A program made the translations under genes and the position numbers. A DNA stretch of 64,000 nt, taken from contig DXJV01000073.1 of the NCBI GenBank assembly GCA_019056785.1, positions 39,957 through 103,956 on the forward strand. Reading direction: 5' to 3'. Source of the DNA: Candidatus Heimdallarchaeota archaeon (GTDB lineage Archaea; Asgardarchaeota; Heimdallarchaeia; JABLTI01). Shown here one piece after another: positions 1 through 60,713 of this stretch (position 1 is its first letter; every line of letters starts with the position of its first letter). Below the pieces are notes generated by a model. That model was not told the origin of the DNA. It worked only from the letters and a program-made list of their open reading frames with translations, and searched no databases.

Positions 1-1507
1 AACAACATTACAAGAAAATCTCATCCGTAGTCACAGTGTTGGTGTTGGTGAACCTGCGCCAGATGAGTACGTCAAAGCAATGATGGTTCTCCGTGTGGCA
101 GCACTTGCCCAGGGCAACTCCGGCTGCCAGTTGCAAACACTCGAAAATCTAATTCAAATGATAAATAAAAACGCACTTCCTATCATTCCTTCAAAAGGGT
201 CTGTAGGGGCAAGTGGGGACTTGGCGCCACTCTCGCACATGGCCTTGGCAATGATTGGGGAAGGAGAAAACAATCTGAAATTTCAAGGAAAAATTTATGA
301 TGCTAAGGAGGGGTTGAAAGCTGCGGGGATACCGATTACTCGGTTATCTTACAAGGAAGGGTTGGCTTTAAATAACGGCGCGCAATTTTCAGCCGGCATT
401 GCTTGTATGGTTTTACACCAGGCACAGAATTTACTGGAAAATGCGGTCATTGCGGCGAGCTTATCAATGGAAGCATTGAAGGCAGTTGCGCAGCAATTTG
501 ATGAGCGAGTGCATAACGCAAGAAACCACCCAGGACAAATCGAAATTGCTCGGCTATTACGAGTGTTAACCAAGGGAAGTATCTTTGTGAAGAAACATGA
601 TGAATTTTATACTTGTAAAACGCCAAATTGTGGTTATTATTATGAGGCGGCTATAGGGGATCCAAGTCATAACATTCCTAAAGATACTCCATTCACATCC
701 CTCCCAGAAACATGGGGTTGCCCCAATTGCCAAGGGCCAAAACAGAATTTCGAGAAACAGTGGCCAAAAGTACAGGATGATTATTCTTTAAGATGTACAC
801 CACAAGTATTGGGACCAATAAAAGAGACTCTGGACTTTTGTAGAAAGATCGTTTCCCGTGAAATTAATGCTGCAACAGATAACCCCTTAATTTTCATTAC
901 GAAGAACGACCCGCTGGAATGTGACATTATTTCTGGTGGGAACTTCCATGGAGAACCCATCGCCCTTGCAATGGATTATCTGGCAATTGCGATGGCAGAA
1001 GTGGGTAATATCTCCGAACGAAGAAGTGCAACTTTAATAGACGAGAAGCGAAATCAAGGGTTGGGCTTATTTTTGATACCAGAAAGTGAGCTGGGATTAA
1101 GTAGTGGCTATATGATGCCACAATACACCGCTGCAGCGCTGGTCTCTGAAAATAAAACCCTTGCAACACCCGCTTCGGTGGATTCCATACCAACATCAGA
1201 TGAGGCCGAAGACCATGTGAGCATGAGCCCCATAGCAGCTCGGAAAGCCGCAAAAATCCTGGAAAATTTGGAGTATATTTTAGCAATTGAAATGCTCCTC
1301 GCGGCGCAGGCGATCAGCTTGCGATGTGCTATTCAGAAGGTGCAACCCGAAAAGGCCTTGGGGGCAAAAACGAGAGAAGTCTATAAACAAATTCGTAAGA
1401 AAGTCCCGCAGTTAACAAAAGATAGAATCCTGTATCCGGAAATCAATTTGCTGGCAAAGATGATTCATGACGGGGCATTAGTGGAAGAACCACTCTTTCG
1501 AAATTAG
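1..1507 (+). CDS. hutH: Histidine ammonia-lyase (5'-truncated by window edge) with inserted rubredoxin-like domain
   Basis: Frame is open from base 2 (LQENLIRSHSVGVG). MIO motif GSVGASGDLAPL, KEGLALNNG, VQDDYSLRC, GGNFHGEP, EDHVSM. Insert CKTPNCGYYY...LPETWGCPNC at ~605-757. Confidence 0.92.
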   Translation, partial: TTLQENLIRSHSVGVGEPAPDEYVKAMMVLRVAALAQGNSGCQLQTLENLIQMINKNALPIIPSKGSVGASGDLAPLSHMALAMIGEGENNLKFQGKIYDAKEGLKAAGIPITRLSYKEGLALNNGAQFSAGIACMVLHQAQNLLENAVIAASLSMEALKAVAQQFDERVHNARNHPGQIEIARLLRVLTKGSIFVKKHDEFYTCKTPNCGYYYEAAIGDPSHNIPKDTPFTSLPETWGCPNCQGPKQNFEKQWPKVQDDYSLRCTPQVLGPIKETLDFCRKIVSREINAATDNPLIFITKNDPLECDIISGGNFHGEPIALAMDYLAIAMAEVGNISERRSATLIDEKRNQGLGLFLIPESELGLSSGYMMPQYTAAALVSENKTLATPASVDSIPTSDEAEDHVSMSPIAARKAAKILENLEYILAIEMLLAAQAISLRCAIQKVQPEKALGAKTREVYKQIRKKVPQLTKDRILYPEINLLAKMIHDGALVEEPLFRN

Positions 1508-1623
1508 CCCCCGTCCTTTTCTCTAAAAAACAAGGATGAAGAATAGAGTGCATAAAAACACAAAAAAGATAGCTTCAAAAAATTTTATTAACTGGCTGTC
1601 AATTGCTTGATGTGCGCTTTACA

Positions 1624-1736
1624 GCCGGGATGGTCTAGTGGTAGAATTCGGGACTGTGGAATTCGCGTGAGCGTTTCTTCCTGCTCCCGAAAGCAGATAT
1701 CCTGAGGTCAGGGTTCGATTCCCTGTCCCGGCACCA
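1624..1736 (+). tRNA. tRNA-His(GTG) with 39-nt intron at canonical 37/38 position (1660-1698), encoded CCA
   Basis: Acceptor stem GCCGGGA/TCCCGGC, anticodon GTG at 1656-1658, T-loop TTCGATT. BHB motif with central helix CTGT/GCAG and bulges GGA and ATA. Confidence 0.93.
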
Positions 1737-1944
1737 CCTCTCATTTTTGTTGTTTGATAATAGTCAAAGGGAAACGTTCAGCCTTTTCTACTTTGCATGT
1801 GATATATAACAATCAATTCGAAAAAGCACTTTTTGTAGGAGAATGAGAGACCCTTGCCCGCAATTTTCCCCATCAAAACAATACTTTGGATAAAAGATTT
1901 AAAGCGTGAAAAGTGACCTAAAGAAACTCTAAAGAGGCTTTAGT

Positions 1945-3468
1945 ATGACTTATACAATTACTGGTTCTGGAATGACGATTGATGACGTCGTCAGAGTAGC
2001 GCGACATGGCGAGAAAGTGGAATTACACAAAGATGCTATTGAACGCATGAAGAAATGCCGTGCAATGCTTGAGAAAAAGATCGATGCACATGAAATTATG
2101 TATGGAGTAAACACCGGTATAGGTGAATTCTCAGAAGTGGTGCTCACAGATGAGCAGGTCAAACAATTCCAAAAATACCTCATCTACAATCATGCTGCAG
2201 GGATCGGTAAACCAGCACCTATCGAACATGTTCGAGGCGCGATTTTGGGACGACTTAATGTCCTCGCCCACGGAAACTCGGGCAATCGTCCTGTGATTGC
2301 TGAAACATTTGTCGAAATGCTCAATAAAGGCGTTACCCCAGAAGTCTGTCGTAAAGGTTCTGTCGGCGCCTGTGGCGACCTTGCCCCAATGTCACAAATC
2401 GCCTTGTTGTTAATGGGCGAAGGACGAGCTTTCTATGAAGGAGAGCTTCTCGAAGGCGCAGAAGCGATGGACCGCGCAGGTATCAAAATACCCGGGCTAA
2501 AGGCTAGAGATGGTCTAGCAGCAATCAATGGTTCAAACTTTTTAACAGCAATGAGCGCTCTGTGGCTCTATGATGCAAAGCGTTTTCTCAAACAAGCAGA
2601 AATCGCCGCAGCAATGTCCTTAGAAGCACTCCTTGCAAACATGAAACCCTATACTCCACTCTTACATGAGGCCCGCGGGTTTCCTGGAGCCATACGCACA
2701 GCAAAAACCATCCATAAATTGGTGAAAGGCGGCGACTTGTTTGAAGGGCGTCTAAAAGTGAAAGTACAGGACGCATATTCCATGCGGTCCACACCACAAG
2801 TCATCGGTGCAGCGCATGATGCTTTAGCATGGGCACAAAAACAGGTGGAAATCGAATTGAACGGTGTCGGTGATAACCCTGTTTTCTTCCCTGATAAAAA
2901 CCTTCAGCTCTCCGGCGCCAACTTTCAAGGCTCACCTGTTTCTTTGCCGATGGATATGGCAGGCGCAGCAATAACAATGGTCTGTGTGATGTCAGAACGA
3001 CGAATGAATAGATTAAACCACCCTGCCTTAAGCGTCGGATTACCACCATTCCTCACAAAAGGCGCAGGTATGATGTCTGGTTTGATGCTAAGCCAATACA
3101 CAGCAGATATGCAAATCGTGGAAATGCGCATCCTATCCATGCCGGCAAGTATCCAGTCAATACCTGCCGCAGCTGACCAAGAAGATTTTGTCAGTATGGG
3201 AATGAACACGGCATTAAAGAATGATCAGATTCTGGATAATGCTTATGGTGTGTTGGGCATCGAGTTTATGGCTGCTGCACAAGCACTTGACTTTAGAGAA
3301 CACAAGCCAGGAAAAGGAGTTGCAAAAGCAAAAGAAGTTATCAGAAAACATGTCAAGTTCTTAGACGAGGACCGACCATTATTCGACGACCATAATCGAA
3401 TGAAAGAATTAGTGAAATCGTGCGAAATCCTTGAAGAAGTAGAAAAAGAAATCGGAAGTCTAGGGTAA
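1945..3468 (+). CDS. MIO-family aromatic amino acid ammonia-lyase/aminomutase (HAL/PAL/TAL family), substrate uncertain
   Basis: YGVNTGIG, GSVGACGDLAP (Ala-Cys-Gly), VQDAYSMRS, GANFQG, QEDFVSMG. Confidence 0.88.
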   Translation: MTYTITGSGMTIDDVVRVARHGEKVELHKDAIERMKKCRAMLEKKIDAHEIMYGVNTGIGEFSEVVLTDEQVKQFQKYLIYNHAAGIGKPAPIEHVRGAILGRLNVLAHGNSGNRPVIAETFVEMLNKGVTPEVCRKGSVGACGDLAPMSQIALLLMGEGRAFYEGELLEGAEAMDRAGIKIPGLKARDGLAAINGSNFLTAMSALWLYDAKRFLKQAEIAAAMSLEALLANMKPYTPLLHEARGFPGAIRTAKTIHKLVKGGDLFEGRLKVKVQDAYSMRSTPQVIGAAHDALAWAQKQVEIELNGVGDNPVFFPDKNLQLSGANFQGSPVSLPMDMAGAAITMVCVMSERRMNRLNHPALSVGLPPFLTKGAGMMSGLMLSQYTADMQIVEMRILSMPASIQSIPAAADQEDFVSMGMNTALKNDQILDNAYGVLGIEFMAAAQALDFREHKPGKGVAKAKEVIRKHVKFLDEDRPLFDDHNRMKELVKSCEILEEVEKEIGSLG

Positions 3469-3948
3469 AAAAACACACTGCTTCCCCCCATTAATCTTTT
3501 TGCTTCTTTCCATTTCTTTTTTTATCTTTTTTCCATCGAAAAGTTTGCCTGAACAATCTTGAAGAGAAAGGCAATTTAAATGCCAAAAATTTAGGAGATG
3601 GCTTCTTTTAAATAGTAGAAACGAAATAGTCTATTGACTGTGCGAGAAGAACAAACAGAGACCTAAAACCCTTTTTCCCTTTCCTTGTCTGAGCGGGAAC
3701 TTCTCAATCGGCCCTTACCTTACCGCCCCGCTCAGCCCCTCCTTTTCTAGCTCCTCAAAAGAGAACGGCAATCGAACTAAGAGAAATAGTTAAATAACGA
3801 TGAAAGTTGACAGTCCCGTGGTGAACTTTTAATGTGGGATAATTTTCACTCAGAAAATCTATAAATTGTTAAGGCTATTTTATACAAGATTTGCTCCCAC
3901 GATAGCTCCATGTCAAAGTTCGTTTAAAATGATTTTTGAGGGAAAGTA

Positions 3949-5451
3949 ATGGCTGAAAAAGAACAGCAAAAAACTATAACCATTGGTCGTCCCGCAGGCT
4001 TTCGGGACTTTTATCCGGAAAAATACGCAAAAGTCCAATTTATTCTCGAAACAATGAGGCGCATTTCCAAAGAGTTTGGGTATGTGGAATACGTCACTCC
4101 TTCTGTTGAGCTCCAAGCACTTTATGAATTGAAATCTGGTGAAGGGCTTGTCGGAGAAACTTTCAAAGTACAGAGCCGGAGTAAACAAAAACTGGTGCTC
4201 ATCCCAGAACTAACCCCCAGTCTCACTCGATTGTTGGCGGAAAGGCAACAAAACTATACAAAACCAATACGTTGGTTCTCCATACCAAAATGCTTTCGTG
4301 ATGAGACCCTGCAACGAGGGCGTGTGAAAGAGTTCTGGCAATATAATATTGACTTACTGGGAGTCGAAGACATTTATGCGGATGCTGAAATAATCACTAT
4401 CCTAATCAGAATTATTACAGCTTGTGGATTGACAAAGGATCAGTTTGTTGTGCGCGTTAATGACCGGCAGTTTATGCAAGAAGCATTGGAATTGCTAGGG
4501 GTGAAGAATTTCCTTGAGACAATCCGTGTCTTTGACCGAAAAGGAAAGTTATTCCAAGAGCAACTCGAGAAAGAACTACGAAAAGAGTTCTCAAAAGAAG
4601 AAGCAGCAAAAGTTGCTTTGAAAATCCGGCAAGTAAAACTAAATAAGAAATATTCACTCGAGGAGCTTCCTAGCTCACCACTCGTACAAAAACTGTTGGA
4701 AACAGCAAAGCAACTAGAACGAACAGCATTTCTCACTGCACTGCAAACTCTTGGCGTAACAGAAGCACAAGCGGAAACGCTTTATGCTCTTTCAGAAATA
4801 CGCGACACCCCCACAAAATTCATCGCGCGAGTGGAAAAACTCATGCCTAACAAGGATGTGAAAGCCCTTCTGGAACCTTTAGCAACCCTTGCAAAATTGC
4901 TTGGTGATTTTGGCGTGCTTGACTTTGTTGAATATGATGGAAGCTTGGCACGAGGGCTGGATTATTACACTGGTATTATCTTCGAAGCATGGAGCAAAGA
5001 TAGCATCCTGCCAAGAGCCATAGCCGGTGGGGGGCGCTATGCAGACCTCGTAGCAACGCTAGGGGGGCAGCCTCTTCCAGGGACAGGTTTTGGTTTTGGT
5101 GAAACGGTTCTTTTGGAGCTACTGGAGGAATTTAACATTCCCACCCCAAAACCAACAACAGCGGATGTATACATTGCTCCAATAAAATTAGCAGATGTAA
5201 AGCCAGCAATAAGCTTGTCAAACAAGCTGCGGGGGAAGGGAATAAAAACCATCCTGAATCCGTTCAATTGGCGCATTAAACGCCATTTCGAAAATGCTGA
5301 AAGTCATGGAATAGAATGGATGATAATTGTTGGTGAAAAAGACCTGGCACAGCAGTCTGTAACACTCCGAAATATCGTCACAGGCAAACAGGAAATCATC
5401 CCACTCACAAGCATTGTGAAAACAGTGGCAAAGTGTCTTAAAAATAATTGA
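3949..5451 (+). CDS. hisS: Histidine--tRNA ligase
   Basis: GFRDFYP, PELTPSL, motif 2 FRDETLQRGRVKEF, ARGLDYYTG, GGGRY, C-terminal anticodon-binding domain. Confidence 0.96.
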   Translation: MAEKEQQKTITIGRPAGFRDFYPEKYAKVQFILETMRRISKEFGYVEYVTPSVELQALYELKSGEGLVGETFKVQSRSKQKLVLIPELTPSLTRLLAERQQNYTKPIRWFSIPKCFRDETLQRGRVKEFWQYNIDLLGVEDIYADAEIITILIRIITACGLTKDQFVVRVNDRQFMQEALELLGVKNFLETIRVFDRKGKLFQEQLEKELRKEFSKEEAAKVALKIRQVKLNKKYSLEELPSSPLVQKLLETAKQLERTAFLTALQTLGVTEAQAETLYALSEIRDTPTKFIARVEKLMPNKDVKALLEPLATLAKLLGDFGVLDFVEYDGSLARGLDYYTGIIFEAWSKDSILPRAIAGGGRYADLVATLGGQPLPGTGFGFGETVLLELLEEFNIPTPKPTTADVYIAPIKLADVKPAISLSNKLRGKGIKTILNPFNWRIKRHFENAESHGIEWMIIVGEKDLAQQSVTLRNIVTGKQEIIPLTSIVKTVAKCLKNN

Positions 5452-5477: not shown

Positions 5478-6164
5478 GTGGATGCGACACTTCTTCTCGC
5501 GCTGTTAAAACAAACAAAGGATCAGCCCTTTATTTTCCCTCAAGAACTCGAACATGTGGCAAGAAACAGCTCGAAAGTTAAAACATTTCTTAAAGAGCTT
5601 GCTGTCCAAGGTTTTTCTTTTATACCAACTATCGATGGGAATTTCCGTATTGAGCACGAAGAAAGGGCGCGATTGGTACTTCTCGGCGCAAAAAATGGGC
5701 TTGATTTTGACCTCCTGGTCAAACATCTAACCTGGCAAGAGTTCGAACTTTTAGTCACCATTTTTGGCGATGAAGCCGGCTATAGCGCCACTACCGGATT
5801 GAATTTTTCCACGGGAGAGCGAAAGTACCAAATTGATGTTGTCTTGAAAAATAACCCCTATGTCTTTTTAATTGATTGTAAACACTTTGGGGGGACAGGA
5901 AAGAAAGCACAATTGCGAGCTGCAGCCGAAGCTCAGCGGGCTCGTTGCATGGCAGTTCGGCAGCATTTTCTTACTCTTAAAACAAAACTTGCCATTGGCT
6001 CCTGGCAGAAGGTGGTGCTCCTCCCTATGCTTGTCACCTGGTTAGATGATGAAATCCGCTTTTATGAACATGTCCCCATTGTCCCTATAGCAAAACTGCG
6101 TTCTTTTTTCATGAACTTTTACGAGTTTTATGAGGACCTCTTTTGGCTCGAAATAAGGTCGTGA
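5478..6164 (+). CDS. PD-(D/E)XK nuclease-fold protein (Mrr/NERD-like)
   Basis: LTWQEFE...QIDVV...IDCKH motif pattern. Confidence 0.7.
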   Translation: MDATLLLALLKQTKDQPFIFPQELEHVARNSSKVKTFLKELAVQGFSFIPTIDGNFRIEHEERARLVLLGAKNGLDFDLLVKHLTWQEFELLVTIFGDEAGYSATTGLNFSTGERKYQIDVVLKNNPYVFLIDCKHFGGTGKKAQLRAAAEAQRARCMAVRQHFLTLKTKLAIGSWQKVVLLPMLVTWLDDEIRFYEHVPIVPIAKLRSFFMNFYEFYEDLFWLEIRS

Positions 6165-6419
6165 GAATGTTCTCTTTGCTCCAAAACAAACCTTTTTCTT
6201 CTAAAAAAGGATTTTTTAATGAAAAAAACGTGTCACTACCTATCTAGTAGCTTTATTAATAAGTGATTCTTTATCTTATATACCGAACTAAACTATTAAT
6301 AAAGAGCTTTACAATAGATTGGTACAATAACAAGTACCGGGAAAAGTAACTGGCTCATGCTACGAGAAAAAAAGACATGTGAGTTAGTACTTCCACACGC
6401 ACAGCAATGAGGTTGAAAA

Positions 6420-8051
6420 ATGGCTGAAATGCAACCACCAAATATTGACGAGATTAAAAGGCAGTCAATTGTTCGTTTTCTTGCAGAAATGCAGGACTTG
6501 AAAGCGAAAGTCGAGTTAGAATTTGCATCGCGATTTGACGAGCAAAAGAATAACTTCTTGGCTGTTTCAAAATCGAGTTATACGCCCCAGGAGATTGGAG
6601 ATATTTTTGATCGGATCAAAAATCTCGAGTTAGAGTTAATGAAACAAATCCTCACAGACACATCTGGAAATGGGAGTAAGATTCTGGGGAATACCCTTAG
6701 TAGCGCTTTAACCGGGAATTTGACTTTTAGTGGCGAAGCAACCGCACGCATTGCCGAACTCGAACAAGAAAACAACCGCTTAAAAGCCCAGCTTATTGAA
6801 AAAGAAAAGGAGTTTGATGCGGAGAAAGCGCGCATTGCAGAGAAAGGAGAAGGACAGATCGAAGAATTGAACCGACTCCAGGAATTAGTTGATGAGCAGA
6901 AACGGACAATTGAAATGTACGAAAAGCAAGTAATGGAACATGGTGAGGCTTTAGCCCAACAACGAATTGAAATCGAAGAACTCCAAGGACAGATCGGTGA
7001 GTTGTCTCAGGAAAAGGAGCAGGTGGAAACCCTTCTAAAAGAAAAGGAAGAAACCCTCCAGGAACAGGAAAAAGAAATTACCGCACTCAAAGAGCAACTG
7101 ACTGCAATGGAAAAACGTCTCTCCGAGGTTAGTGCCGTTAGTACTGAAAAACACGACGCTGAAATCGCTCGCTTAGAAGAAACATTAAAAATTGAACGCG
7201 CCCGTGCAGATGACCTTGCCGTGAAACTGAAAGAAGCAACCTCCGCTGTTGAGAATTACAAGAAAGCTTTGAGCCAGAAAGACGTGGAAATTGACAAATT
7301 GAGGAAAACCATCACAGAGACAAAAGCAGAAATCGCCTCTGCAGAGACAGAAAAAGAAGCGAAGATTCGGGAACTCTTAGATGAGAAGAAAGCCAAAGAG
7401 CATGAACTTAACGATATTAAGAACTCTCTCGAACGGGCTGAACACAAAATTGACGCCTTAACTGGGGAATTAACTGAGAAACAACAGCTCATTGATGAAC
7501 AAGCAAATGAGATTTCCAAACTCAAAAAACAACTTGCTGAGGTGGAGGACAGTTTGTCCTCGGAGAAGGCTTCCCAAGAGTCGCGCTTACAGGACTTATT
7601 GCGCGAGAAAACTAAATCAGAAGAAGAAATCAATGATTTGAACAAAAAGATTAGAGATCTACAAACGACGCTTGAAGAGAAAGAAAAGACTCTTACAGAA
7701 GTCACCAAAATGCAAGATGTCATTGAGAAGGATCGTGATGCTCTCCAAGAAGAACGCGATAAAACCCTAGTTCAACTCGAGAACCTTCGGAAAGAAGTTG
7801 AAGAGCTGAAAGCCCAGGCCGAGCAAAAAGATACTTTAGTGAAAAATCTCACAAAATCCTTGCAAAGTATCCCTAAGTTCCGGCTCTTTTTAGCCATTCA
7901 AGACATTGGTGGCGATATTTCTATCAATGACCTGGCGAAAATTGTCGGGCAGTCGCCAGATATAGTCGAGCATATTGTGAATGACTTGAAGAAAGATGGG
8001 CTTGTAAAAGTCAATAAGAAGGAAAACAAATTATTTGTCTCGAAAGTATAG
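6420..8051 (+). CDS. Long coiled-coil protein with C-terminal winged helix
   Basis: About 400 aa of E/K/L heptads, then ISINDLAKIVGQSPDIVEHIVNDLKKDGLVKV (wHTH pattern). Confidence 0.75.
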   Translation: MAEMQPPNIDEIKRQSIVRFLAEMQDLKAKVELEFASRFDEQKNNFLAVSKSSYTPQEIGDIFDRIKNLELELMKQILTDTSGNGSKILGNTLSSALTGNLTFSGEATARIAELEQENNRLKAQLIEKEKEFDAEKARIAEKGEGQIEELNRLQELVDEQKRTIEMYEKQVMEHGEALAQQRIEIEELQGQIGELSQEKEQVETLLKEKEETLQEQEKEITALKEQLTAMEKRLSEVSAVSTEKHDAEIARLEETLKIERARADDLAVKLKEATSAVENYKKALSQKDVEIDKLRKTITETKAEIASAETEKEAKIRELLDEKKAKEHELNDIKNSLERAEHKIDALTGELTEKQQLIDEQANEISKLKKQLAEVEDSLSSEKASQESRLQDLLREKTKSEEEINDLNKKIRDLQTTLEEKEKTLTEVTKMQDVIEKDRDALQEERDKTLVQLENLRKEVEELKAQAEQKDTLVKNLTKSLQSIPKFRLFLAIQDIGGDISINDLAKIVGQSPDIVEHIVNDLKKDGLVKVNKKENKLFVSKV

Positions 8052-8083: not shown

Positions 8084-10111
8084 TTAACCTCCTTTTAAGG
8101 ACTCATATCTATCAAAGGACATCTGCCAAAACGCTCGCCCTTCTGTTTCCGAGCGCAAGGCTTGATCAATGCCAAACGACTCAGCAACCGGTAAATTCCC
8201 AGTTATGATGAGAAGGTCTTGGTCAGTTCTTACATCAAGTACTGCCCCCTGTCGTTTATTAAGGATAGCAGTCACTTTTCCGAGGTAGGAGGCCGGAATG
8301 GTTATTTGGATGCGATAAATGGGTTCCTGTATTGTTATCTTTCCTTTCCTTAACGCTTCCCAGACAGCATTTCTCATTGCGGGGACTGTGTGTTCGAACT
8401 TCTCGCTTCCTTCTACAGTGAACTCTTTTAAAATTACTCTGACCTCTGAAACGGGCTTGGAAGCAATAGGGCCAGAAGCGAGGGCATTTTCTGCCCCTAG
8501 CAAAATATTTTCTACAGCATCCTTTGAAAGCTGCTGGAAAAGAACAGCAGGAATAATGATTTCATTTTGGTACTGTGGCAGTTTGACAATCTTGTCATTT
8601 TTTTCAGGCGATGTGGCAGAAGATGTATAAGGGATAGTGGCCGGTTCGACAGAAAGGCTAATGGTGGTACCAAACATTTCATATGTAACTATTCCACTGG
8701 GCTGTTCGATTTTTTCCACTAATACTACCAAAGGTTTGGATGCTGTACATCGGATCTCCTTTGAAAGTTCTTTAACCACTGTTTCAAGATGCAATTCTCC
8801 CAATCCCATCAATAAAATCTCTCCTGATTGATCATCAATACGAACAGAGAGGTTGGGGTCCTCGAGATCAAACCGTTCCAACAAATGTTTTAATTGTGGG
8901 AGGTCACGGAGCATTTCAGGTTCGATTGCCACTGTTACCACTGGATTTGCGAGATACTTTATCTCTTCGAAAGGAGTCATTTTAGTCGTTTTATTGTCAA
9001 CAAGTGTCTCCCCTGGAGAAACTTTTCCTAACCCTGAGAGTGCTACTGTATTCCCAGCGGGGACTGCTACGACTCGTTTTTTCTCTTCGCCCATAAATAC
9101 GTAAAGGTTTTGAACTTTCTTAACTTCGTTTGTATTTAGAAGCCTAACCGTCATTTTTTCCTTTAGTATGCCGGAGAATACTCTGCCAAGAACCAATAAC
9201 CCCACATGGGGGTCCACTAAAAGTTTTGTAGTGCCAAAAACCATTGGAGCAGATTCGTCCTTTGAACATGCTACAAGTGCTTTGCCAATCGGGCTGTCTA
9301 TAGCTCCCTTCCAAATTTTCCGCAGTCGGTATTTTTGGGCGCTAATGGGGTCAGGCAAATGGTCAATTATCATATCAACCAAAGGTTCCTCTATCGGGAG
9401 CATTTGCTGGAGTGCTGCGATGTCATTTTCTTGATACAGCTTGTAAATTGTATCAAAAGTAATATTCTTTTCCTTCGCAAGTGGGACAGAAAGCGCCCAG
9501 CGATGAAGTGCAGAACCAAAAACCACACTCCCTTTTTTTGTTGAAACACGCCAAGCTGGTAATGAGGTTTTTTTGGAATATTGCTTTATCAAGAGGTTAA
9601 AATTAGTATAAATAATTTCAATGCGTTCAGCAATCTCTTTTGGCGGAAGTTTGAGTTCGTTTATTAGTCGGTCGATTTTATTGATAAAGAGGATCGGTTT
9701 AACGCCTTCTGTTATGCATTGGCGAATGACCGTTTCGGTTTGCGCCATTATTTGCTCTACTGCATCCACAACAACAATTGCCCCATCAACAATGCGTAAT
9801 GCACGAGCAACTTTCCCAGAAAAGTCGACATGCCCTGGGCTGTCAATAAGGTTAATAAGAAAGTCACTGTCGTTTTTCTTAATAATGAGGGAGATATTGG
9901 CTGTTTTCATAGTAATGCCCCGGCGTTGCTCTTCTGGTAGGAAGTCAAGCGCGCGGGCTTCTCCGGCGGTGGAAGGAGCAAGAATACCTGCAATGGCCAG
10001 CAGCGAATCTGATAAAGTGGTTTTTCCATGATCTATATGTGCTACTAAGGCAATGTTTCGGATGCGCTCTTGTTGCTCCATAAGAGAGCTTATTTGATCA
10101 ATTAGCCGCAT
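8084..10111 (-). CDS. Elongation factor 2 paralog (aEF-2p type, lacks diphthamide site)
   Basis: AHIDHGKTT, RGIT, DSPGHVDF, NKID, GLGELHLE, LRSETEG. Domain IV is shortened and has no HRG motif. Probable start is MRLIDQ at 10111. Confidence 0.88.
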   Translation of the reverse strand: MRLIDQISSLMEQQERIRNIALVAHIDHGKTTLSDSLLAIAGILAPSTAGEARALDFLPEEQRRGITMKTANISLIIKKNDSDFLINLIDSPGHVDFSGKVARALRIVDGAIVVVDAVEQIMAQTETVIRQCITEGVKPILFINKIDRLINELKLPPKEIAERIEIIYTNFNLLIKQYSKKTSLPAWRVSTKKGSVVFGSALHRWALSVPLAKEKNITFDTIYKLYQENDIAALQQMLPIEEPLVDMIIDHLPDPISAQKYRLRKIWKGAIDSPIGKALVACSKDESAPMVFGTTKLLVDPHVGLLVLGRVFSGILKEKMTVRLLNTNEVKKVQNLYVFMGEEKKRVVAVPAGNTVALSGLGKVSPGETLVDNKTTKMTPFEEIKYLANPVVTVAIEPEMLRDLPQLKHLLERFDLEDPNLSVRIDDQSGEILLMGLGELHLETVVKELSKEIRCTASKPLVVLVEKIEQPSGIVTYEMFGTTISLSVEPATIPYTSSATSPEKNDKIVKLPQYQNEIIIPAVLFQQLSKDAVENILLGAENALASGPIASKPVSEVRVILKEFTVEGSEKFEHTVPAMRNAVWEALRKGKITIQEPIYRIQITIPASYLGKVTAILNKRQGAVLDVRTDQDLLIITGNLPVAESFGIDQALRSETEGRAFWQMSFDRYESLKGG

Positions 10112-10157
10112 TTTTCTTTCCCAGCTTCTCTTTTTTCTATAGAGGGCAATAAGAACC

Positions 10158-10430
10158 TCAACCGCCATGTGCCAACGGCAAAATAGTTACTACTTGGTTT
10201 GGCTTTAAAGGCACATCAAAGAGGTGCAATCGTTTCGCATCTTTTTGGTCGACCATTATCAATAGGTCTGCTCTGATAGCGTCGTCTTTAAACAGCAAGT
10301 TGGAAATATGAGGGTATTGTTTACAAACTTGCTGGAGTGCTTTTAGTAAGGTTGTCTGTTCTGGCAACTCGAGGGTGATTTTTTCTTTTTGATTAAATAT
10401 CGATCCTTTAAAGTCGAAAGAGACATTCAT
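10158..10430 (-). CDS. Ubiquitin-like beta-grasp protein (Urm1/SAMP/MoaD family)
   Basis: 90 aa, ends ILPLAHGG (di-glycine, Urm1-like HGG). Confidence 0.85.
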   Translation of the reverse strand: MNVSFDFKGSIFNQKEKITLELPEQTTLLKALQQVCKQYPHISNLLFKDDAIRADLLIMVDQKDAKRLHLFDVPLKPNQVVTILPLAHGG

Positions 10431-39267: not shown

Positions 39268-39669
39268 ATGGTAAATCTTCGAACTGAAACCATCAGATGT
39301 ATATTGTGCAATCATGAGATTGATTATTCCTCACAAAAAAAAGAGGAGTTATATATCTGTGCAGAATGTCAGGCATATTTCTGCCAAAAATGTCGAGAAG
39401 CAGTTAGGGGCTATGAATCATGCCCGGCCGCACGCTTATTAGGGGTAAAAGAACATAAATTAAAATTCATCAAACTCCTCCCGCCAAAAGTGCTTCTTTC
39501 CCCGATGAACGGAGCAACAGTCCCAGTTAGCAGGGAAGAAAAGACAAATCAAAAAGCAAGGGTGAAAATCCTTTCGGAACCATCTGTGAAAATCATCGAC
39601 AAAGATGACAACAACAAAAAGAGTAGCTCCAAAGGGAAAGCTCGGAAAAAGAACACAAAACGGCAGTGA
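39268..39669 (+). CDS. Zinc-finger protein with basic tail
   Basis: CILC...CAEC...FCQKC...CP...H. Confidence 0.72.
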   Translation: MVNLRTETIRCILCNHEIDYSSQKKEELYICAECQAYFCQKCREAVRGYESCPAARLLGVKEHKLKFIKLLPPKVLLSPMNGATVPVSREEKTNQKARVKILSEPSVKIIDKDDNNKKSSSKGKARKKNTKRQ

Positions 39670-39679
39670 AAATGTAGCA

Positions 39680-41404
39680 ATGCTTTTAAGACCATTTCTT
39701 GTTATAAGCGCGACAAGTCAGCAACCATTAACCGCTGCAAACATAATAACGAATGGGCAAACATTGCGTATTTTAATCATTCCGGAAGAGGGAGACGAAG
39801 AGATAGAGGAACAGCTGCAAGTGGTAATCTACAATCCGATTGATGCACCGGTTGTCGTTGGGAAAGTTCCGACACTTAAAACTGAGACGATTGCCTCTTT
39901 TAATGTTCAAATTCCAGAAAACTGGATAGCAGGAAATTATCGCCTTGTTCTCATGAAAAAAGCGAGCGGCGAAATTGTAAAGAGTAATTTTTTTACTATG
40001 AAAGCCACCACCCCACTGGGAAAACACCTCACAGAGCGGATACTTTCTCCCCACTGGCAGATAAACTATAAAGTTCAGATAAGTAATCCAACAGATAAAC
40101 CAGTCGGAAACTTTTCCGCTTTTGTAGCCTTACCAATAACAATCCCACCACATCAAATTGTTAAACGATTGACCGTTTCCCCAGAAACAGTGCGACTTTC
40201 CTCAGATGTAGAAGGAAACCACTGGGCCCATTATGAGGTGACGCGTATAGCTCCCGGGCAGACTCTTGAGTTACGCTATAGTGCGGTTATTCAAAGAAAA
40301 CCATTTTTGATGGCACCCACCCTTGAAAACGTGAAACAGGTAGCAAATCCATATGCCAAAACGTTTCTTAAACCATATCTTGCATCAGAAGCCCATATCG
40401 AAAGTACGCACCCACGAATTATCGAGCTGGCAAAAAACATTGTAACAGACCATCCGATAAAATTTGCAAAACGAGCAATACAAATAGTGAATCAAATTTT
40501 AAGGTATGAAATTCAACCGGAAGAATATGGAGCTGCATATGCAGTTGAAACAGGGAGGGGGGACTGCACAGAATTTGCCGCACTCTTTGTCGCTCTTTGT
40601 AGAGCAAAAGGGATCCCCGCACGTGTTGTTGCCGGATTTGGAATGGGACAGCGATGGGAGCGACATGCAATGGCAGAAATTCTTGTGGGGGGACGGTGGT
40701 TGCCAGTAGATGTTACAGGACAACAAGGAACCCATCCTTCTCTTGGTTTACAAACTAACATAATCACTCTTACCCGTGGAAATTGGATGGGGGGGACACT
40801 CGCAAAAGAAATTTCTTATCGATACCAAATCCTGGAACCAAGGCAAAAATTAGCAATTGGGGTGGATTGGAAAATAACCTTAAAAAAGAGCAGGGCAGAT
40901 CCGCTTTCAAAGGAAAACATGAAAAGCTCGGTCCGGGTTTTATCTTCGCGCTCGCCAGCATTAGTGGAAACAAAAGTGAAAATCGTAAGAGAGACCCTTG
41001 GAGAAGAGCGATTAATGCAGCTTAAAACCAAATCCACAGATAAGCCGGTGAAAATGGACCAAAACATCAAGATCTCTTTGAGAGCCACGCGAAAAAAAGG
41101 GCTCTTTATTCTCCCTACCTTACCCGACGTCATAAAAACCGTTGCTTTGAAAAAGAAGCGACTTATTATTCAAAACAAAACTGACCGGGTGCAAAGAGGG
41201 TGCCTTGAAATCCACGAGCGGGACAATTTTGGGGTGATACGTTTACTAAGCATCCGGGGGCTGCTCTTAGAGCCGGAAAGTGAACGGCAGGTGCAGCTAG
41301 GACTCACGTCTGCACGGAAAGGGCTGGTAACATTACAATTCCTATTCATAAACCGTATAGGGCGAGTACTCGCAAAAGAAGAAAGGACCATTAGTTTGTT
41401 TTAG
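39680..41404 (+). CDS. Transglutaminase-like domain protein with flanking beta-sandwich-like domains
   Basis: GDCTEFAALFVALCRAKGIPARVVAG, HAMAE, WLPVD (Cys-His-Asp triad). Confidence 0.88.
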   Translation: MLLRPFLVISATSQQPLTAANIITNGQTLRILIIPEEGDEEIEEQLQVVIYNPIDAPVVVGKVPTLKTETIASFNVQIPENWIAGNYRLVLMKKASGEIVKSNFFTMKATTPLGKHLTERILSPHWQINYKVQISNPTDKPVGNFSAFVALPITIPPHQIVKRLTVSPETVRLSSDVEGNHWAHYEVTRIAPGQTLELRYSAVIQRKPFLMAPTLENVKQVANPYAKTFLKPYLASEAHIESTHPRIIELAKNIVTDHPIKFAKRAIQIVNQILRYEIQPEEYGAAYAVETGRGDCTEFAALFVALCRAKGIPARVVAGFGMGQRWERHAMAEILVGGRWLPVDVTGQQGTHPSLGLQTNIITLTRGNWMGGTLAKEISYRYQILEPRQKLAIGVDWKITLKKSRADPLSKENMKSSVRVLSSRSPALVETKVKIVRETLGEERLMQLKTKSTDKPVKMDQNIKISLRATRKKGLFILPTLPDVIKTVALKKKRLIIQNKTDRVQRGCLEIHERDNFGVIRLLSIRGLLLEPESERQVQLGLTSARKGLVTLQFLFINRIGRVLAKEERTISLF

Positions 41405-41536
41405 GGAACCAAAGCAAGGGAAAAAAGTCCCTTTTCATGAACAAAAGGGAGAGAATGCGAACCTGTGAAGCGAGAAAAAATTGTCAATAAGAGCAAAAGT
41501 ACATTTTTATACTAAAGACATCTTTTACTACTTATT

Positions 41537-43387
41537 ATGTTGTTTGTTGTCTTTTCTCTAATCATCGGTTTAATTTTCGGTGTACTTGCAGGAGGCATTG
41601 TCCTCCTTAACAAGAGAAAATTTACACCAGCAGTCGGCATTATAGCCGCGGCGGGATTGGTCGGCGGCTTTCTCATCTCATTAACCCTGTTCTGGTTTGG
41701 TATCCCGGTACTAGGGTCAATCATTCTTATCTGTCTTTTATTGGGTGGCATTCTTGTACTGGTACTTTCACGCCTCTATCATCGGAGCTTTGCGCGAGTA
41801 GGGCGAAATGCCCAGGGCATAATTTCATTGGCAATAGCCGGATTAATGCTGTTTGGCTCAGCCTATTTCGGCCTTAGTACAATCATCTGGAAAGGATATG
41901 ACACTGCGAAATACTTTGATAGTATCCTCATGTTTCCTGATGAGAAGATGCCTTTCAATCACATCATTACTGGAGATAACGTGCGGGTAGTGGACAGTGA
42001 CTTGGCTGCAGAAATAATCCAGAAATCACAGCCGTTTGGCAGTAATTCCATGATCCTTGAGTTGCATGTCGGGAAACTATATGGAAAACTAATGTGGATT
42101 GGTGTTATGGGTACGGATGCAATCCAAATTGGAACGGATAACGCAGGGCGGAAACGGAACTCGATCTTCGGCTTTGTGGGCGTCGACCTCACTGACCCTT
42201 CCCAGGCGGTGATAGTTGTCGAGCAACCGTTCAAAATAGGGAGTTATCTTGTCCGGCAAAAGCAATTGGAGCGGATCGTCTGGAAAATTAATCCCAATTA
42301 TCGCGTGGGTGACAACAGCTACTTTTCGATGAATGACGAGGGGGAAATGCGTCTTTTAGCCCCCTATTCTATTTCAACGAGCTTGACCGTCGAAAGCGGC
42401 CTTGGATTGACAACCTTCCTCGAAAAGGTTGGTGGTGTCCTGGAATTTAATGCACAGGGAACGCTCATAAAGGATTATCGCGATTTGAGTGAACTTCCAG
42501 ACTATGCACGCATTCAATGCTACCCTGAAAGTTGGTTAGAATATAATATAAACAAATGGGGGCGCCATCGTAAAGGAAATCACGAATTTGCCTATTGGTT
42601 CACAACAACAGAACAGCTGGGGATATCCTATTATGACGATGTGCGGGTAATCTATGATGCCAATACCCAGGAAACATCTCAGTATGTCATGCTCACCCAG
42701 CCGGAGTCGGAAAGTCAGCTCCTACGAGGGGCTATAAAGGCAAATGCGAGTGGCATCTATTTCTTCGATTGGGCCGACCTCGACCCTAAACCCATTGACA
42801 CTCAAAATGCCCTCTATCATAGCCGAACGGCAATCGATGTGGAAGTCGGTACGACAGAGCATAATTATCGACCGATCCTCCCGTTGCTCTTCCCCATTCA
42901 GATGCACTATAAAAACATGACAGATTATGCCTATGTGGTTCCCATTCAATTTGGGAGCATAAGATTCGGCGGCATTTGTATTACTAACCCGTTCGACCCA
43001 AGTGGGGTAGACACAATTGTCGAGTTAGCAGAGGCAACAGACACCGTGGATGAGGTGTTGACGCGAGCAATAGATGAGTATCTGACATTTATGGGGATAA
43101 CACAACCGGTAGAAGATAATTACACGGAAACCCTTGAAATAGCACAACTGGCATCGTTTGAACAAGATGGAAATACTATCATCTTGGCACAAGGAAATCT
43201 GACATATATCCCCGAAGGAAACACCACAGCAATAAGTAGAAATGAAACAGTCTGGTTCACACAACAGTTCTTAAATGTCACTCAATGGGAAATAGCCCTC
43301 TTTCTCCAAGTCGGCGATACCCTCGAGTTAAACATTATAATCATCAATGAAATCATTTATTGCCAAGAGATCATCTCGGTAAATTAA
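41537..43387 (+). CDS. Hypothetical membrane protein (4 TM plus large extracytoplasmic domain)
   Basis: 616-aa ORF, hydrophobic N-terminus, many NxS/T sequons near the C-terminus. Confidence 0.75.
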   Translation: MLFVVFSLIIGLIFGVLAGGIVLLNKRKFTPAVGIIAAAGLVGGFLISLTLFWFGIPVLGSIILICLLLGGILVLVLSRLYHRSFARVGRNAQGIISLAIAGLMLFGSAYFGLSTIIWKGYDTAKYFDSILMFPDEKMPFNHIITGDNVRVVDSDLAAEIIQKSQPFGSNSMILELHVGKLYGKLMWIGVMGTDAIQIGTDNAGRKRNSIFGFVGVDLTDPSQAVIVVEQPFKIGSYLVRQKQLERIVWKINPNYRVGDNSYFSMNDEGEMRLLAPYSISTSLTVESGLGLTTFLEKVGGVLEFNAQGTLIKDYRDLSELPDYARIQCYPESWLEYNINKWGRHRKGNHEFAYWFTTTEQLGISYYDDVRVIYDANTQETSQYVMLTQPESESQLLRGAIKANASGIYFFDWADLDPKPIDTQNALYHSRTAIDVEVGTTEHNYRPILPLLFPIQMHYKNMTDYAYVVPIQFGSIRFGGICITNPFDPSGVDTIVELAEATDTVDEVLTRAIDEYLTFMGITQPVEDNYTETLEIAQLASFEQDGNTIILAQGNLTYIPEGNTTAISRNETVWFTQQFLNVTQWEIALFLQVGDTLELNIIIINEIIYCQEIISVN

Positions 43388-43468
43388 GACAAGAAAAAAA
43401 AACAATCCCGAAGACTTTCGGGATCTCTCCTTTTTTTTAAAAACTTTATTTGAGCACAATTGCGCAAA

Positions 43469-44860
43469 TTAAGCACTTTTTGCTGCGCGGGCTTTTTTCC
43501 GTTCAATCTTACGAACAATGGCGTCAGCAGCAATAACAATGGGGTAAATTGTTTCGGAAACGGCAGGAGCATAACAAAAGTCAAGGGTTAAAAGGTCATA
43601 AACTGTAAGGCCGGTTTGAAGTGCAAAGGCAATGTAATTCACATTCTCATCAACTTTTTCTTCGCCGAAAACTTCGCCCCCGAGTAATTTCCCATCACTA
43701 GAGCGGGCAATAAGTTTGATAGTAATAGGCTTTGTTGTCGGCATATAATGTGGTCGGATTGGCGCGGTAATTTTTGCTTGGGTTGTTTCGATTCCTTGCT
43801 TTTTGGCTTGTTCAGTATTTATCCCGGCAACCCCCACATAAAAATTCCGTGAAGAAACTATAAAGGAATTAACACTGCCAGGATAGCGTGTGTCCCCACC
43901 TGCAGCATTGATACCAGCAATACGGCCCTGACGGACGGCCGGCCCAGCTAAAAGCACAAGGCTTCGTTCCTTTGTAACTAAATTGGTAACAGAGACACAG
44001 TCACCTGCAGCATAAATAGCTTCATCAGAAGTCTGCATTTTTTCATTAACTTCAATCGCCTTGAAGTTCTCAACAAGCTTCAACCCACTCTTTTGAGCCA
44101 ATTGGGCATTTGGTCGCACCCCGGTTGCCAGGACAACAACATCAGCAGCAAGAGTCTCGAGTTTGTCCTCCGTGCCAATCGTTATGTGCTCCACTTTTTC
44201 TGTCCCGAGAATTTCCTTGACCATCATACCGGTGCGAACGATAATACCCGTTTCCTCAAGACGTTTTTGTGCCAACAAGGCAATATCCTTTGAAATCTTC
44301 AGTGGCATTAATTGTGGGAACATTTCTACAATGGTGACCTCTTTGCCCAGGTGTCTAACTTCTGTAGCAACTTCGATACCAATAGCACTCCCACCAACAA
44401 CAATGACATTTTTAATGCTCTCTGCTGAGACAACTTCCTTAATGGCTTGGGCATCTTCCGCAAACTTCAGGCGAAAAACATTCTTGAGATCGCGCCCTGG
44501 AATGGGTGGGACGAAAACGTTTGAGCCGGTGCAAAGAATTAATTTGTCATAGGGGAGCGTGCTTTTTGAGCCATCGTCGTTGTTCACGACTGTGACCACT
44601 TTTTTCTTCCGGTCAATTGCGTCTGCAACAGTATTTAAGAGAAGCGTGATGTTCATTCGCTCAAAATTGAGGTCCTCAATAATTGTCTCGATTGACGGAA
44701 GATACCCGCCAATGACAAACGGGAGGGCACAAGGATGATAAGTATCGTATTTTTTCGAATCAACAACAGTGATTTCTGCTGTTCGATCTGTTAAGCGCGC
44801 GGTACTGGCGGCAGTGAGCCCCGCAGGACCATTTCCAATTATAACAATTTTTTGTGGCAT
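43469..44860 (-). CDS. NADH oxidase / CoA-disulfide reductase family flavoprotein
   Basis: GNGPAG, YHPCALP (redox Cys), GGSAIG.E, IYAAGDC, YAPAVS. Confidence 0.93.
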   Translation of the reverse strand: MPQKIVIIGNGPAGLTAASTARLTDRTAEITVVDSKKYDTYHPCALPFVIGGYLPSIETIIEDLNFERMNITLLLNTVADAIDRKKKVVTVVNNDDGSKSTLPYDKLILCTGSNVFVPPIPGRDLKNVFRLKFAEDAQAIKEVVSAESIKNVIVVGGSAIGIEVATEVRHLGKEVTIVEMFPQLMPLKISKDIALLAQKRLEETGIIVRTGMMVKEILGTEKVEHITIGTEDKLETLAADVVVLATGVRPNAQLAQKSGLKLVENFKAIEVNEKMQTSDEAIYAAGDCVSVTNLVTKERSLVLLAGPAVRQGRIAGINAAGGDTRYPGSVNSFIVSSRNFYVGVAGINTEQAKKQGIETTQAKITAPIRPHYMPTTKPITIKLIARSSDGKLLGGEVFGEEKVDENVNYIAFALQTGLTVYDLLTLDFCYAPAVSETIYPIVIAADAIVRKIERKKARAAKSA

Positions 44861-44870
44861 ATTTGGCTGA

Positions 44871-44909
44871 CCTCTAGGCCGACTAGCAGAAGCTAGTTCA
44901 GCTGCGAGG
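44871..44909 (-). promoter_or_regulatory. Leader hairpin overlapping the Shine-Dalgarno-like GAGG of the NADH oxidase gene
   Basis: CCUC/GAGG, GCUG/CGGC, ACUAGC/GCUAGU with UUCU loop, 10 nt upstream of the ATG. Confidence 0.45.
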
Positions 44910-54082: not shown

Positions 54083-54159
54083 TGGTGGACCGGGCGGAAT
54101 TTGAATCCGCGGCCATCTGACTGCGAATCAGACGATCTTCCAGGCTGATCTACCGGCCC
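54083..54159 (-). tRNA. tRNA-Ala(CGC), encoded CCA
   Basis: GGGCCGG/CCGGTCC with G3:U70, TCTGA-TT-CGC-AG-TCAGA anticodon arm, TTCAAAT T-loop. Confidence 0.96.
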
Positions 54160-60627: not shown

Positions 60628-60713
60628 TGGTGCGGGGAAGGGGAGTCGAACCCCTGCACTCCTGCGAGACAAGAGCCTGAATCTTGCGTCTTTGACCACT
60701 TGACTATCCCCGC
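60628..60713 (-). tRNA. tRNA-Leu(CAG), encoded CCA
   Basis: GCGGGGA/TCCCCGC, CAAGA-TT-CAG-GC-TCTTG, long variable arm, TTCGACT. Confidence 0.96.

Follow-up and report, generated by a model that had tools for sequence, protein, structure and literature searches.

A candidate G-1-independent tRNA-His/histidyl-tRNA synthetase pair within a conserved histidine-related gene neighbourhood of an Asgard archaeon

We analysed a 64,000-nt stretch of contig DXJV01000073.1 (positions 39,957 to 103,956; the whole of this stretch is referred to as the window) from the Candidatus Heimdallarchaeota archaeon assembly GCA_019056785.1. This assembly, here G000, represents an Asgard archaeon at 82.5% completeness, and its lineage JABLTI01 is what we take to be Gerdarchaeales within Heimdallarchaeia. 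At the 5′ end of the window, four histidine-related genes lie on the + strand: hutH, which encodes a histidine ammonia-lyase (HAL); tRNA-His(GUG); a second lyase of the 4-methylideneimidazole-5-one (MIO) type; and hisS, which encodes a histidyl-tRNA synthetase (HisRS) (Table 1). The original prediction, made from the DNA letters, had reported this row of four co-oriented genes, and all four are present at that place. It did not mention the changed identity of the tRNA-His, which is the most unusual feature of the locus.

Table 1. Features at the histidine-related locus (window coordinates, nt)
Feature	Position	Strand	Basis
hutH (histidine ammonia-lyase, 3′ part)	1..1507	+	Homology, active-site residues, AlphaFold2 fold match
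Rubredoxin domain inside hutH, ~54 aa, Cys codons 614-730	602..763	+	PF00301
Putative promoter element of the tRNA gene, B recognition element (BRE)/TATA-like	1578..1591	+	Kept in relatives; function inferred
tRNA-His(GUG), encoded CCA, 39-nt bulge-helix-bulge intron 1660-1698	1624..1736	+	ARAGORN with introns, Rfam
Putative BRE/TATA-like element ~45 nt 5′ of second lyase	1889..1904	+	Conservation; function inferred
Second MIO lyase, 507 aa, unnamed anaerobe clade, MIO triad Ala-Cys-Gly at 2368-2376	1945..3468	+	Homology
Putative BRE/TATA-like promoter element of hisS	3783..3796	+	Kept in all aligned family loci
hisS 5′-leader element: GGTG 3820, TGTGGGA 3833, TTCAC 3845, TCCCAC 3895	3820..3901	+	Conservation
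hisS, 500-aa HisRS; insert residues 213-267 = nt 4585-4749	3949..5451	+	TIGR00442 above cut-off

A guanosine at position -1 (G-1) is a near-universal tRNA identity element; the exceptions known to us are one alphaproteobacterial clade and some eukaryotes. In archaea, G-1 lies opposite C73 and is either encoded or added by the guanylyltransferase Thg1 (PMC3245924, PMC4338351). The tRNA-His gene at the locus is the only one found in the assembly, and it has a G1-C72 pair, discriminator A73, and A rather than G at position -1; the canonical archaeal and bacterial arrangement of G-1 opposite C73 is therefore not present. The default tRNA scan missed this gene, which was detected by ARAGORN with introns and by Rfam; the 24-nt intron called by ARAGORN was replaced by the 39-nt intron at 37/38, which was placed by hand from the bulge-helix-bulge. 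A strict tRNA-His pattern matched only this genome among 161 and was too tight, so a covariance model took its place. The search for Thg1 was negative in the class (0 of 41 genomes) and in another family (0 of 19 genomes), and the same search detected the control genome. Across the phylum, 14 of 161 genomes encode Thg1, none of them with the long HisRS type described below. Of the eukaryote-type combination of A73 with Thg1, only A73 was found.

The hisS gene is the only HisRS gene copy in the assembly. Its product belongs to a clade of long HisRS proteins (~500 aa) that is confined to five Asgard families among the genomes searched, and its insertion domain is enlarged by a 55-aa insert that is modelled as helices. 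In the T. thermophilus HisRS complex, G-1 is contacted by Arg115, Arg122, and Gly72-Gly73 (PMC4357726). In the motif-2 loop of this HisRS (RDETLQRGRVK), Thr and Lys occupy the two positions of the Arg residues that contact the G-1 phosphate, and Ser-Lys replaces Gly-Gly in the G-1 pocket. These changes extend throughout the long clade: the Arg115 position is Thr or Ser in 116 of 117 sequences and the Arg122 position is Lys in 109 of 117, whereas the next relatives have Arg (95/95). Likewise, Gly-Gly is not among the 12 commonest pocket dipeptides of the long clade, whereas it is the commonest in the next relatives. The closest matches in the PDB are the HisRS of Thermoplasma, followed by that of a trypanosome. 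In a quick, unrooted tree with long branches, the HisRS of a family from another class is sister to this HisRS (SH-aLRT, an approximate likelihood-ratio branch test, 96).

The tRNA and synthetase features occur together across genomes. All 25 complete tRNA-His genes from long-HisRS genomes have A73 and no G at -1, and G-1 together with C73 was identified in 12 genomes with shorter HisRS types; one C73 tRNA-His without G-1 co-occurs with Thg1, which matches the published rule. In this 82.5% complete genome, G-1 is not encoded, Thg1 was not found, and the HisRS contacts to G-1 are altered, as expected of a G-1-independent pair. We consider it probable, with good confidence, that the tRNA and the synthetase have co-evolved as the core of the locus: HisRS would charge a tRNA that lacks G-1 and would recognise it mainly by the GUG anticodon, and the enlarged insertion domain would grip the acceptor stem.

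Caulobacter crescentus and related Alphaproteobacteria (PMC3064791, PMC9976931) share with this pair the lack of an encoded G-1, A73, an altered motif-2 loop and G-1 pocket, and an extra HisRS peptide. The pair described here differs in that it is archaeal, has C72 rather than U72, has a different motif-2 loop and one 55-aa insert, and includes an intron-containing tRNA whose gene is linked to the synthetase gene. Trypanosoma brucei and Acanthamoeba castellanii have a G-1-independent HisRS, and in both, as here, G-1 is not encoded and Thg1 was not found (PMC4338351). However, these are eukaryotic systems, T. brucei has U73, the HisRS similarity reaches only E about 1e-54, and no such insert has been shown there. 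Eukaryotic cytosolic tRNA-His also has A73 and no encoded G-1, but G-1 is added by Thg1 (PMC3245924), which was not found in this class; human HisRS is not close to this HisRS (E 4e-29). According to one review, A73 arose early in eukaryote evolution (PMC3245924); for the resemblance seen here, convergence is more likely than ancestry. In the literature searched, which did not cover subscription journals, there was no report on Thg1 or tRNA-His in Asgard archaea or on an archaeal G-1-less pair. The Asgard pair (A73, no G-1, Thg1 not found) offers an archaeal case that can be tested, in the group most closely related to eukaryotes, and it is a candidate orthogonal tRNA/synthetase pair.

Several observations weigh against this interpretation. 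Because the genomes are kin, the 25/25 match between tRNA and HisRS type may represent only one or two events. A73 is weak evidence alone, as 23 of 30 scorable tRNAs of G000 carry it, including tRNAs for Asp, Ser, and Glu, which suggests that discriminator identity has drifted more widely. G-1 is likewise not encoded in the tRNA-His of two Asgard genomes with short HisRS (G181, L301/L324, and G032, L264/L322; A73 and U73), and Thg1 was not found in either; the 55-aa insert is therefore not required for the loss of G-1. One long-type genome does have G at -1, in a tRNA gene whose 3′ end is cut off. At 82.5% completeness, Thg1 is "not found" rather than absent, and some other guanylyltransferase could add G-1. 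The same limit applies to hisG and hisD, which were not found in the assembly and are not proven absent; the host is a probable histidine auxotroph.

Other tRNA-His genes varied in several ways. Among Asgard archaea (L033, L034, L044, L149, L284, L134), introns are absent or are located at 37/38, in the D-loop, or in the T-loop, with up to three per gene, and two tRNA-His sequence types that are ~65% alike occur at the same locus within one genus. No tRNA-His gene was recovered from Thermoplasmatales. In a Zixibacterium (L099:302-3347), a G-1-less tRNA-His with U72 and A73 lies directly 5′ of a hisS gene whose product has KPDPG in the motif-2 loop, and these genes converge on a lyase of the same clade as the second lyase; this pair looks like an independent Caulobacter-like case.

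The window holds the 3′ 501 codons of hutH (2-1507), which encodes a 575-aa protein and starts 220 nt 5′ of the window. The protein has the Ala-Ser-Gly MIO triad (window 209-217), the Ser-His switch, and equivalents of Tyr53, Asn195, Gln277, Tyr280, Arg283, Phe329, and Glu414 (residue roles from PMC11432326), all as in HutH. The 5′-truncated 501-aa sequence scored 538 against PRK09367 (cut-off 524) and 513 against TIGR01225 (cut-off 539). AlphaFold2 modelled the protein with a mean predicted local distance difference test (pLDDT) score of 91.7, and the closest folds were the HAL structures of P. putida and Thermoplasma; the fold is common to P. putida 1B8F/1GKM, Thermoplasma acidophilum 7TQR, and T. 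cruzi 6V6H, with template modelling scores of 0.89-0.93 by target. The genome also encodes hutU, hutI, and ftcd, as bacterial hut operons do. The original prediction had proposed a search for hutU/hutI or a urocanate reductase upstream of the window; hutU, hutI, and ftcd are located together on another contig of the assembly (C57). Unlike in a hut operon, where hutH is co-located with hutU, hutI, and hutG or ftcd, hutH here lies with tRNA-His and hisS. It is highly probable that the first lyase acts as a working histidase that supplies urocanate to HutU, HutI, and FTCD in a probable histidine auxotroph.

The first lyase differs from HutH in a rubredoxin insert that was seen in no other homologue listed. 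The domain is in-frame (PF00301, 48 bits against a cut-off of 23), is modelled at pLDDT 88-95, and sits in the loop just 5′ of the QDxYSxRC active-site segment. A rubredoxin domain precedes this segment in all 26 close clusters, with four Cys invariant in all 26, and was found in 0 of the 94 next homologues, whose identity over their length does not exceed ~49%; by these comparisons, the insert is family-specific. Two Cys knuckles and a Tyr/Trp core are present, as in rubredoxins, in the pattern C-x4-C ... C-P-x-C. The first knuckle is C-x4-C in 25 of 26 sequences and C-x2-C in one, so this insert does not have the canonical C-x2-C first knuckle of rubredoxin. A metal bound there may be Fe or Zn. 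A stand-alone rubredoxin encoded in the same genome is 48% identical to the insert.

Deamination by HAL is a non-redox reaction, which makes the rubredoxin domain a lid or a sensor. Our assessment leans, somewhat beyond even, toward a structural or modulating role, in which the domain would be a metal-bound lid on the active-site loop and not an electron carrier for the reaction; a true Fe redox switch is unlikely. The redox or iron sensitivity suggested by the original prediction rests only on this insert and is not supported. In another Asgard family (f16, L365-L369), histidases of ~620 aa have an unrelated, Cys-free insert of ~75 aa in the same loop, indicating that the loop tolerates inserts and that position alone is no proof of regulation. 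No report of a HAL-rubredoxin fusion or of an Asgard HAL was identified in the literature searched.

The second lyase has an Asn-His switch and the motifs GANFQG and QEDF, and it keeps the equivalents of His83 and Glu414. It thereby differs from HutH, which has Ser-His, GNFHG, QEDH, and Ala-Ser-Gly (ASG), and it has neither the Phe-Leu or His-Leu switch of phenylalanine and tyrosine ammonia-lyases and aminomutases nor scores above their curated cut-offs. Its HutH model scores fall on both sides of the cut-offs (TIGR01225, 497 < 539; PRK09367, 528 > 524). It would function in the manner of a HAL without being classed as one. Members of its clade are 78-86% identical across anaerobic bacteria and archaea. 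The Ala-Cys-Gly triad occurs in 29 of 79 clade members, scattered over the tree, which rules out a sequencing error; it was also ruled out as a trait of the archaeal family, as the other family copies examined all have ASG. A Ser143Cys mutant of histidase reportedly still forms MIO. Around the 79 clade loci, the neighbours include canonical HAL (24), hutI (16), hutU (9), hisS (8), and ftcd (6), which points to histidine chemistry, and in several bacteria, a member of this clade is the only lyase seen beside hutU or ftcd. The Asgard copies form one clade that is patchy over families, and in Heimdallarchaeaceae, the second lyase adjoins hutH and hutI. The GC content at third codon positions (GC3) is 0.415, compared with 0.41 and 0.39 for the neighbouring genes. 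The second lyase is probably optional cargo and would be an active MIO enzyme on histidine or a close analogue, such as ring-methylated histidine. The literature searched held no report of an Ala-Cys-Gly MIO and no sequence similarity network of this clade. Neither a MIO lyase that contains a rubredoxin nor a natural MIO precursor with Ala-Cys-Gly was found in the papers searched, and each can be tested with a single expressed protein.

The original prediction had set a synteny survey in relatives as its test, and the gene order recurs throughout the genus and the Gerdarchaeales-type family, repeated on independent contigs; the objection that relatives would lack synteny therefore fails, and a chance arrangement in a single genome is ruled out. 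The two lyases share a contig and an orientation in 9 of 10 genus relatives, with hisS next in 8, and in 10 of 11 genomes of the family the first lyase is followed by a tRNA-His or a remnant of one. This synteny is conserved by common descent, and the relatives are non-independent observations. The interval is loose, with varied genes between the four and opposite-strand genes in most relatives. The second lyase is missing from the interval in three family loci (another genus and two further contigs), leaving hutH-tRNA-hisS in the other genus and on one of the contigs and hutH-hisS in the third. In two relatives, the working tRNA-His has relocated, and a decayed local copy remains alongside an intact copy elsewhere. 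Heimdallarchaeaceae and other families have lost the linkage. In the family from another class whose HisRS is sister to this one, tRNA-His lies directly 5′ of hisS in 7 of 7 genomes, and hutH is on other contigs in the 5 of 5 checked; the tRNA-hisS pair therefore looks like the core of the locus.

Separate conserved BRE/TATA-like elements precede the tRNA gene, the second lyase, and hisS, and that of the second lyase is kept in 12 of 12 orthologous upstream regions, Heimdallarchaeaceae included. A sigma-70/terminator scan was discarded, as it gave chance-level output and is unsuited to archaea. The separate promoter-like elements, antisense intruders, optional lyase, moved tRNA, and placement of hutU, hutI, and ftcd on another contig argue against one co-regulated operon; the four genes are probably a neighbourhood of separately promoted genes.

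About 25 nt 3′ of the TATA-like element of hisS lies a leader element of the form GGTG-N7-10-TGTGGGA-N4-5-TTCAC, with TCCCAC ~60 nt after TGTGGGA. The motif was identified in 11 of 12 genomes of the family, each time as a single copy 5′ of hisS, and the controls gave 0 matches. In the consensus fold, GUGGGA pairs with UCCCAC to form a predicted 6-bp long-range helix, possibly a pseudoknot; its pairing is complete (100%), and a G-U pair is retained at each of the 8 changes. The leader contains UGUGG, the same word as the anticodon loop of tRNA-His, which suits feedback by an anticodon-reading HisRS. We tentatively propose, with confidence slightly short of even, that the leader acts as RNA in the control of hisS itself, either bound by HisRS through anticodon mimicry or as a pairing switch. 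The helix has no double-sided compensatory change and is not better than shuffles, which tells against such an RNA role, and the main alternative is that the element may be a DNA operator. An operator shared by all four genes was rejected, because the complete motif was identified at hisS alone and did not occur 5′ of hutH or of hutU/hutI; GTGGG/TCCCA words occur 5′ of the second-lyase promoter in three relatives.

The E. coli thrS operator and T-box leaders are conserved leaders that precede synthetase genes and carry an anticodon- or codon-like word. The hisS leader resembles them as a conserved pre-synthetase element with a word like the cognate anticodon. It differs in having no Rfam match (only the tRNA matched in 1450-4000 at E ≤ 1), in being much smaller, and in an element order unlike that of the T-box. 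Elements of mRNA that resemble tRNA have been reviewed (PMC9976931). Feedback control of an archaeal synthetase is a candidate function of the hisS leader.

Taken as a whole, the locus is best read, with moderate preference, as a family-wide neighbourhood of the Gerdarchaeales type that would have grown by accretion of separately promoted genes around a G-1-independent tRNA-His/HisRS pair. Histidine would then be split between translation and catabolism passively, through enzyme affinities and without a dedicated switch. One point tells against so plain a history: hisS also adjoins the second-lyase clade in unrelated bacteria, at 6 of 62 non-Asgard loci, with Bacteroidales and a Zixibacterium as examples, and this recurrence hints at more than inheritance.

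That recurrence would suit the coordinated system of the original prediction, a switch that divides histidine between translation and catabolism, with the redox or iron state of the rubredoxin as its gate and with co-regulation of hisS and the tRNA. The family-wide synteny, the invariant Cys in a loop beside the active site, the probable histidine auxotrophy, the GTGGG/TCCCA words before the second lyase, and the bacterial hisS-lyase neighbours (in Zixibacterium with a G-1-less tRNA-His directly 5′ of hisS) are all consistent with such a switch. It is nonetheless improbable, given that the genes have promoter-like elements of their own and antisense genes between them, that the second lyase is optional and the tRNA has moved in two relatives, that the full leader motif is restricted to hisS, that HAL chemistry is non-redox, and that another family has a Cys-free insert in the same loop. 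The conserved synteny and the hisS-lyase adjacency in Bacteroidales and Zixibacterium support that prediction; co-regulation is not supported. Quite improbable, too, is a combined version in which a G-1-free, anticodon-reading HisRS represses its own mRNA through the UGUGG leader and the histidase is gated by rubredoxin, so that an auxotroph balances decoding against breakdown by tRNA load and redox.

Historical accident is about as improbable as that combined version. In this explanation, insertions recur at the tRNA-His gene, the second lyase and others are passengers, and the order is inherited without selection for closeness. Consistent with this, the genes on either side of the tRNA differ greatly between genomes, and Heimdallarchaeaceae and other families do not keep the linkage. 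In relative G009 (L042:10580-15414), a 4.8-kb insertion separates the resident tRNA-His into 5′ and 3′ halves; the inserted DNA contains a TnpB/Cas12f-like gene and, in inverted orientation, an intact tRNA-His of the intron type as a replacement. On the other hand, no duplicated tRNA 3′ end (att site) was identified in the window or genome, the second lyase matches its neighbours in GC3, falls in one Asgard clade, and also lies beside hutH and hutI in Heimdallarchaeaceae, and luck is an unlikely source of four histidine genes together. It is very unlikely that the second lyase serves quality control by destroying histidine analogues that HisRS would mischarge (e.g., N-methylhistidines from sediment protein), hence its repeated adjacency to hisS; the kept His83 and Glu414 equivalents beside three differing pocket motifs, the pairing of the clade with canonical HAL (24/79 loci) and with hisS in at least three lineages, and a reported HAL that uses N-tau-methylhistidine (PMC11432326) would fit, but the clade member is the only lyase seen beside hutU/ftcd in several bacteria, as expected of a plain histidase, and many long-HisRS genomes have no second lyase (0/19 in the other family).

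A run of genes 0.4-8 kb 5′ of the window (L001:5541-13590) encodes an SMC-like ATPase, uncharacterised proteins, a JAB protease, and a ThiF/E1 enzyme, and it includes 105-aa and 248-aa proteins that are possibly ubiquitin-like and E2-like and had no Pfam match; the SMC/JAB/ThiF run lies directly 5′ of hutH throughout the family. Directly 3′ of hisS, relatives carry genes for a transglutaminase-domain protein, a 617-aa protein, and a pyridine nucleotide-disulfide oxidoreductase. Here this block is ~34 kb further downstream (window 5478-8051 versus about 39600-44900), indicating that the region immediately 3′ of hisS is rearranged in this genome. A 694-aa paralogue of elongation factor 2 (EF-2) at window 8084-10168 (-) scored below the aEF-2 cut-off, and a 744-aa EF-2 is encoded on contig C49 (3409-5643 region), adjoined by a stand-alone rubredoxin gene. 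Genes for tRNA-Ala(CGC) and tRNA-Leu(CAG) are located at window 54083-54159 and 60628-60713 (-), respectively.

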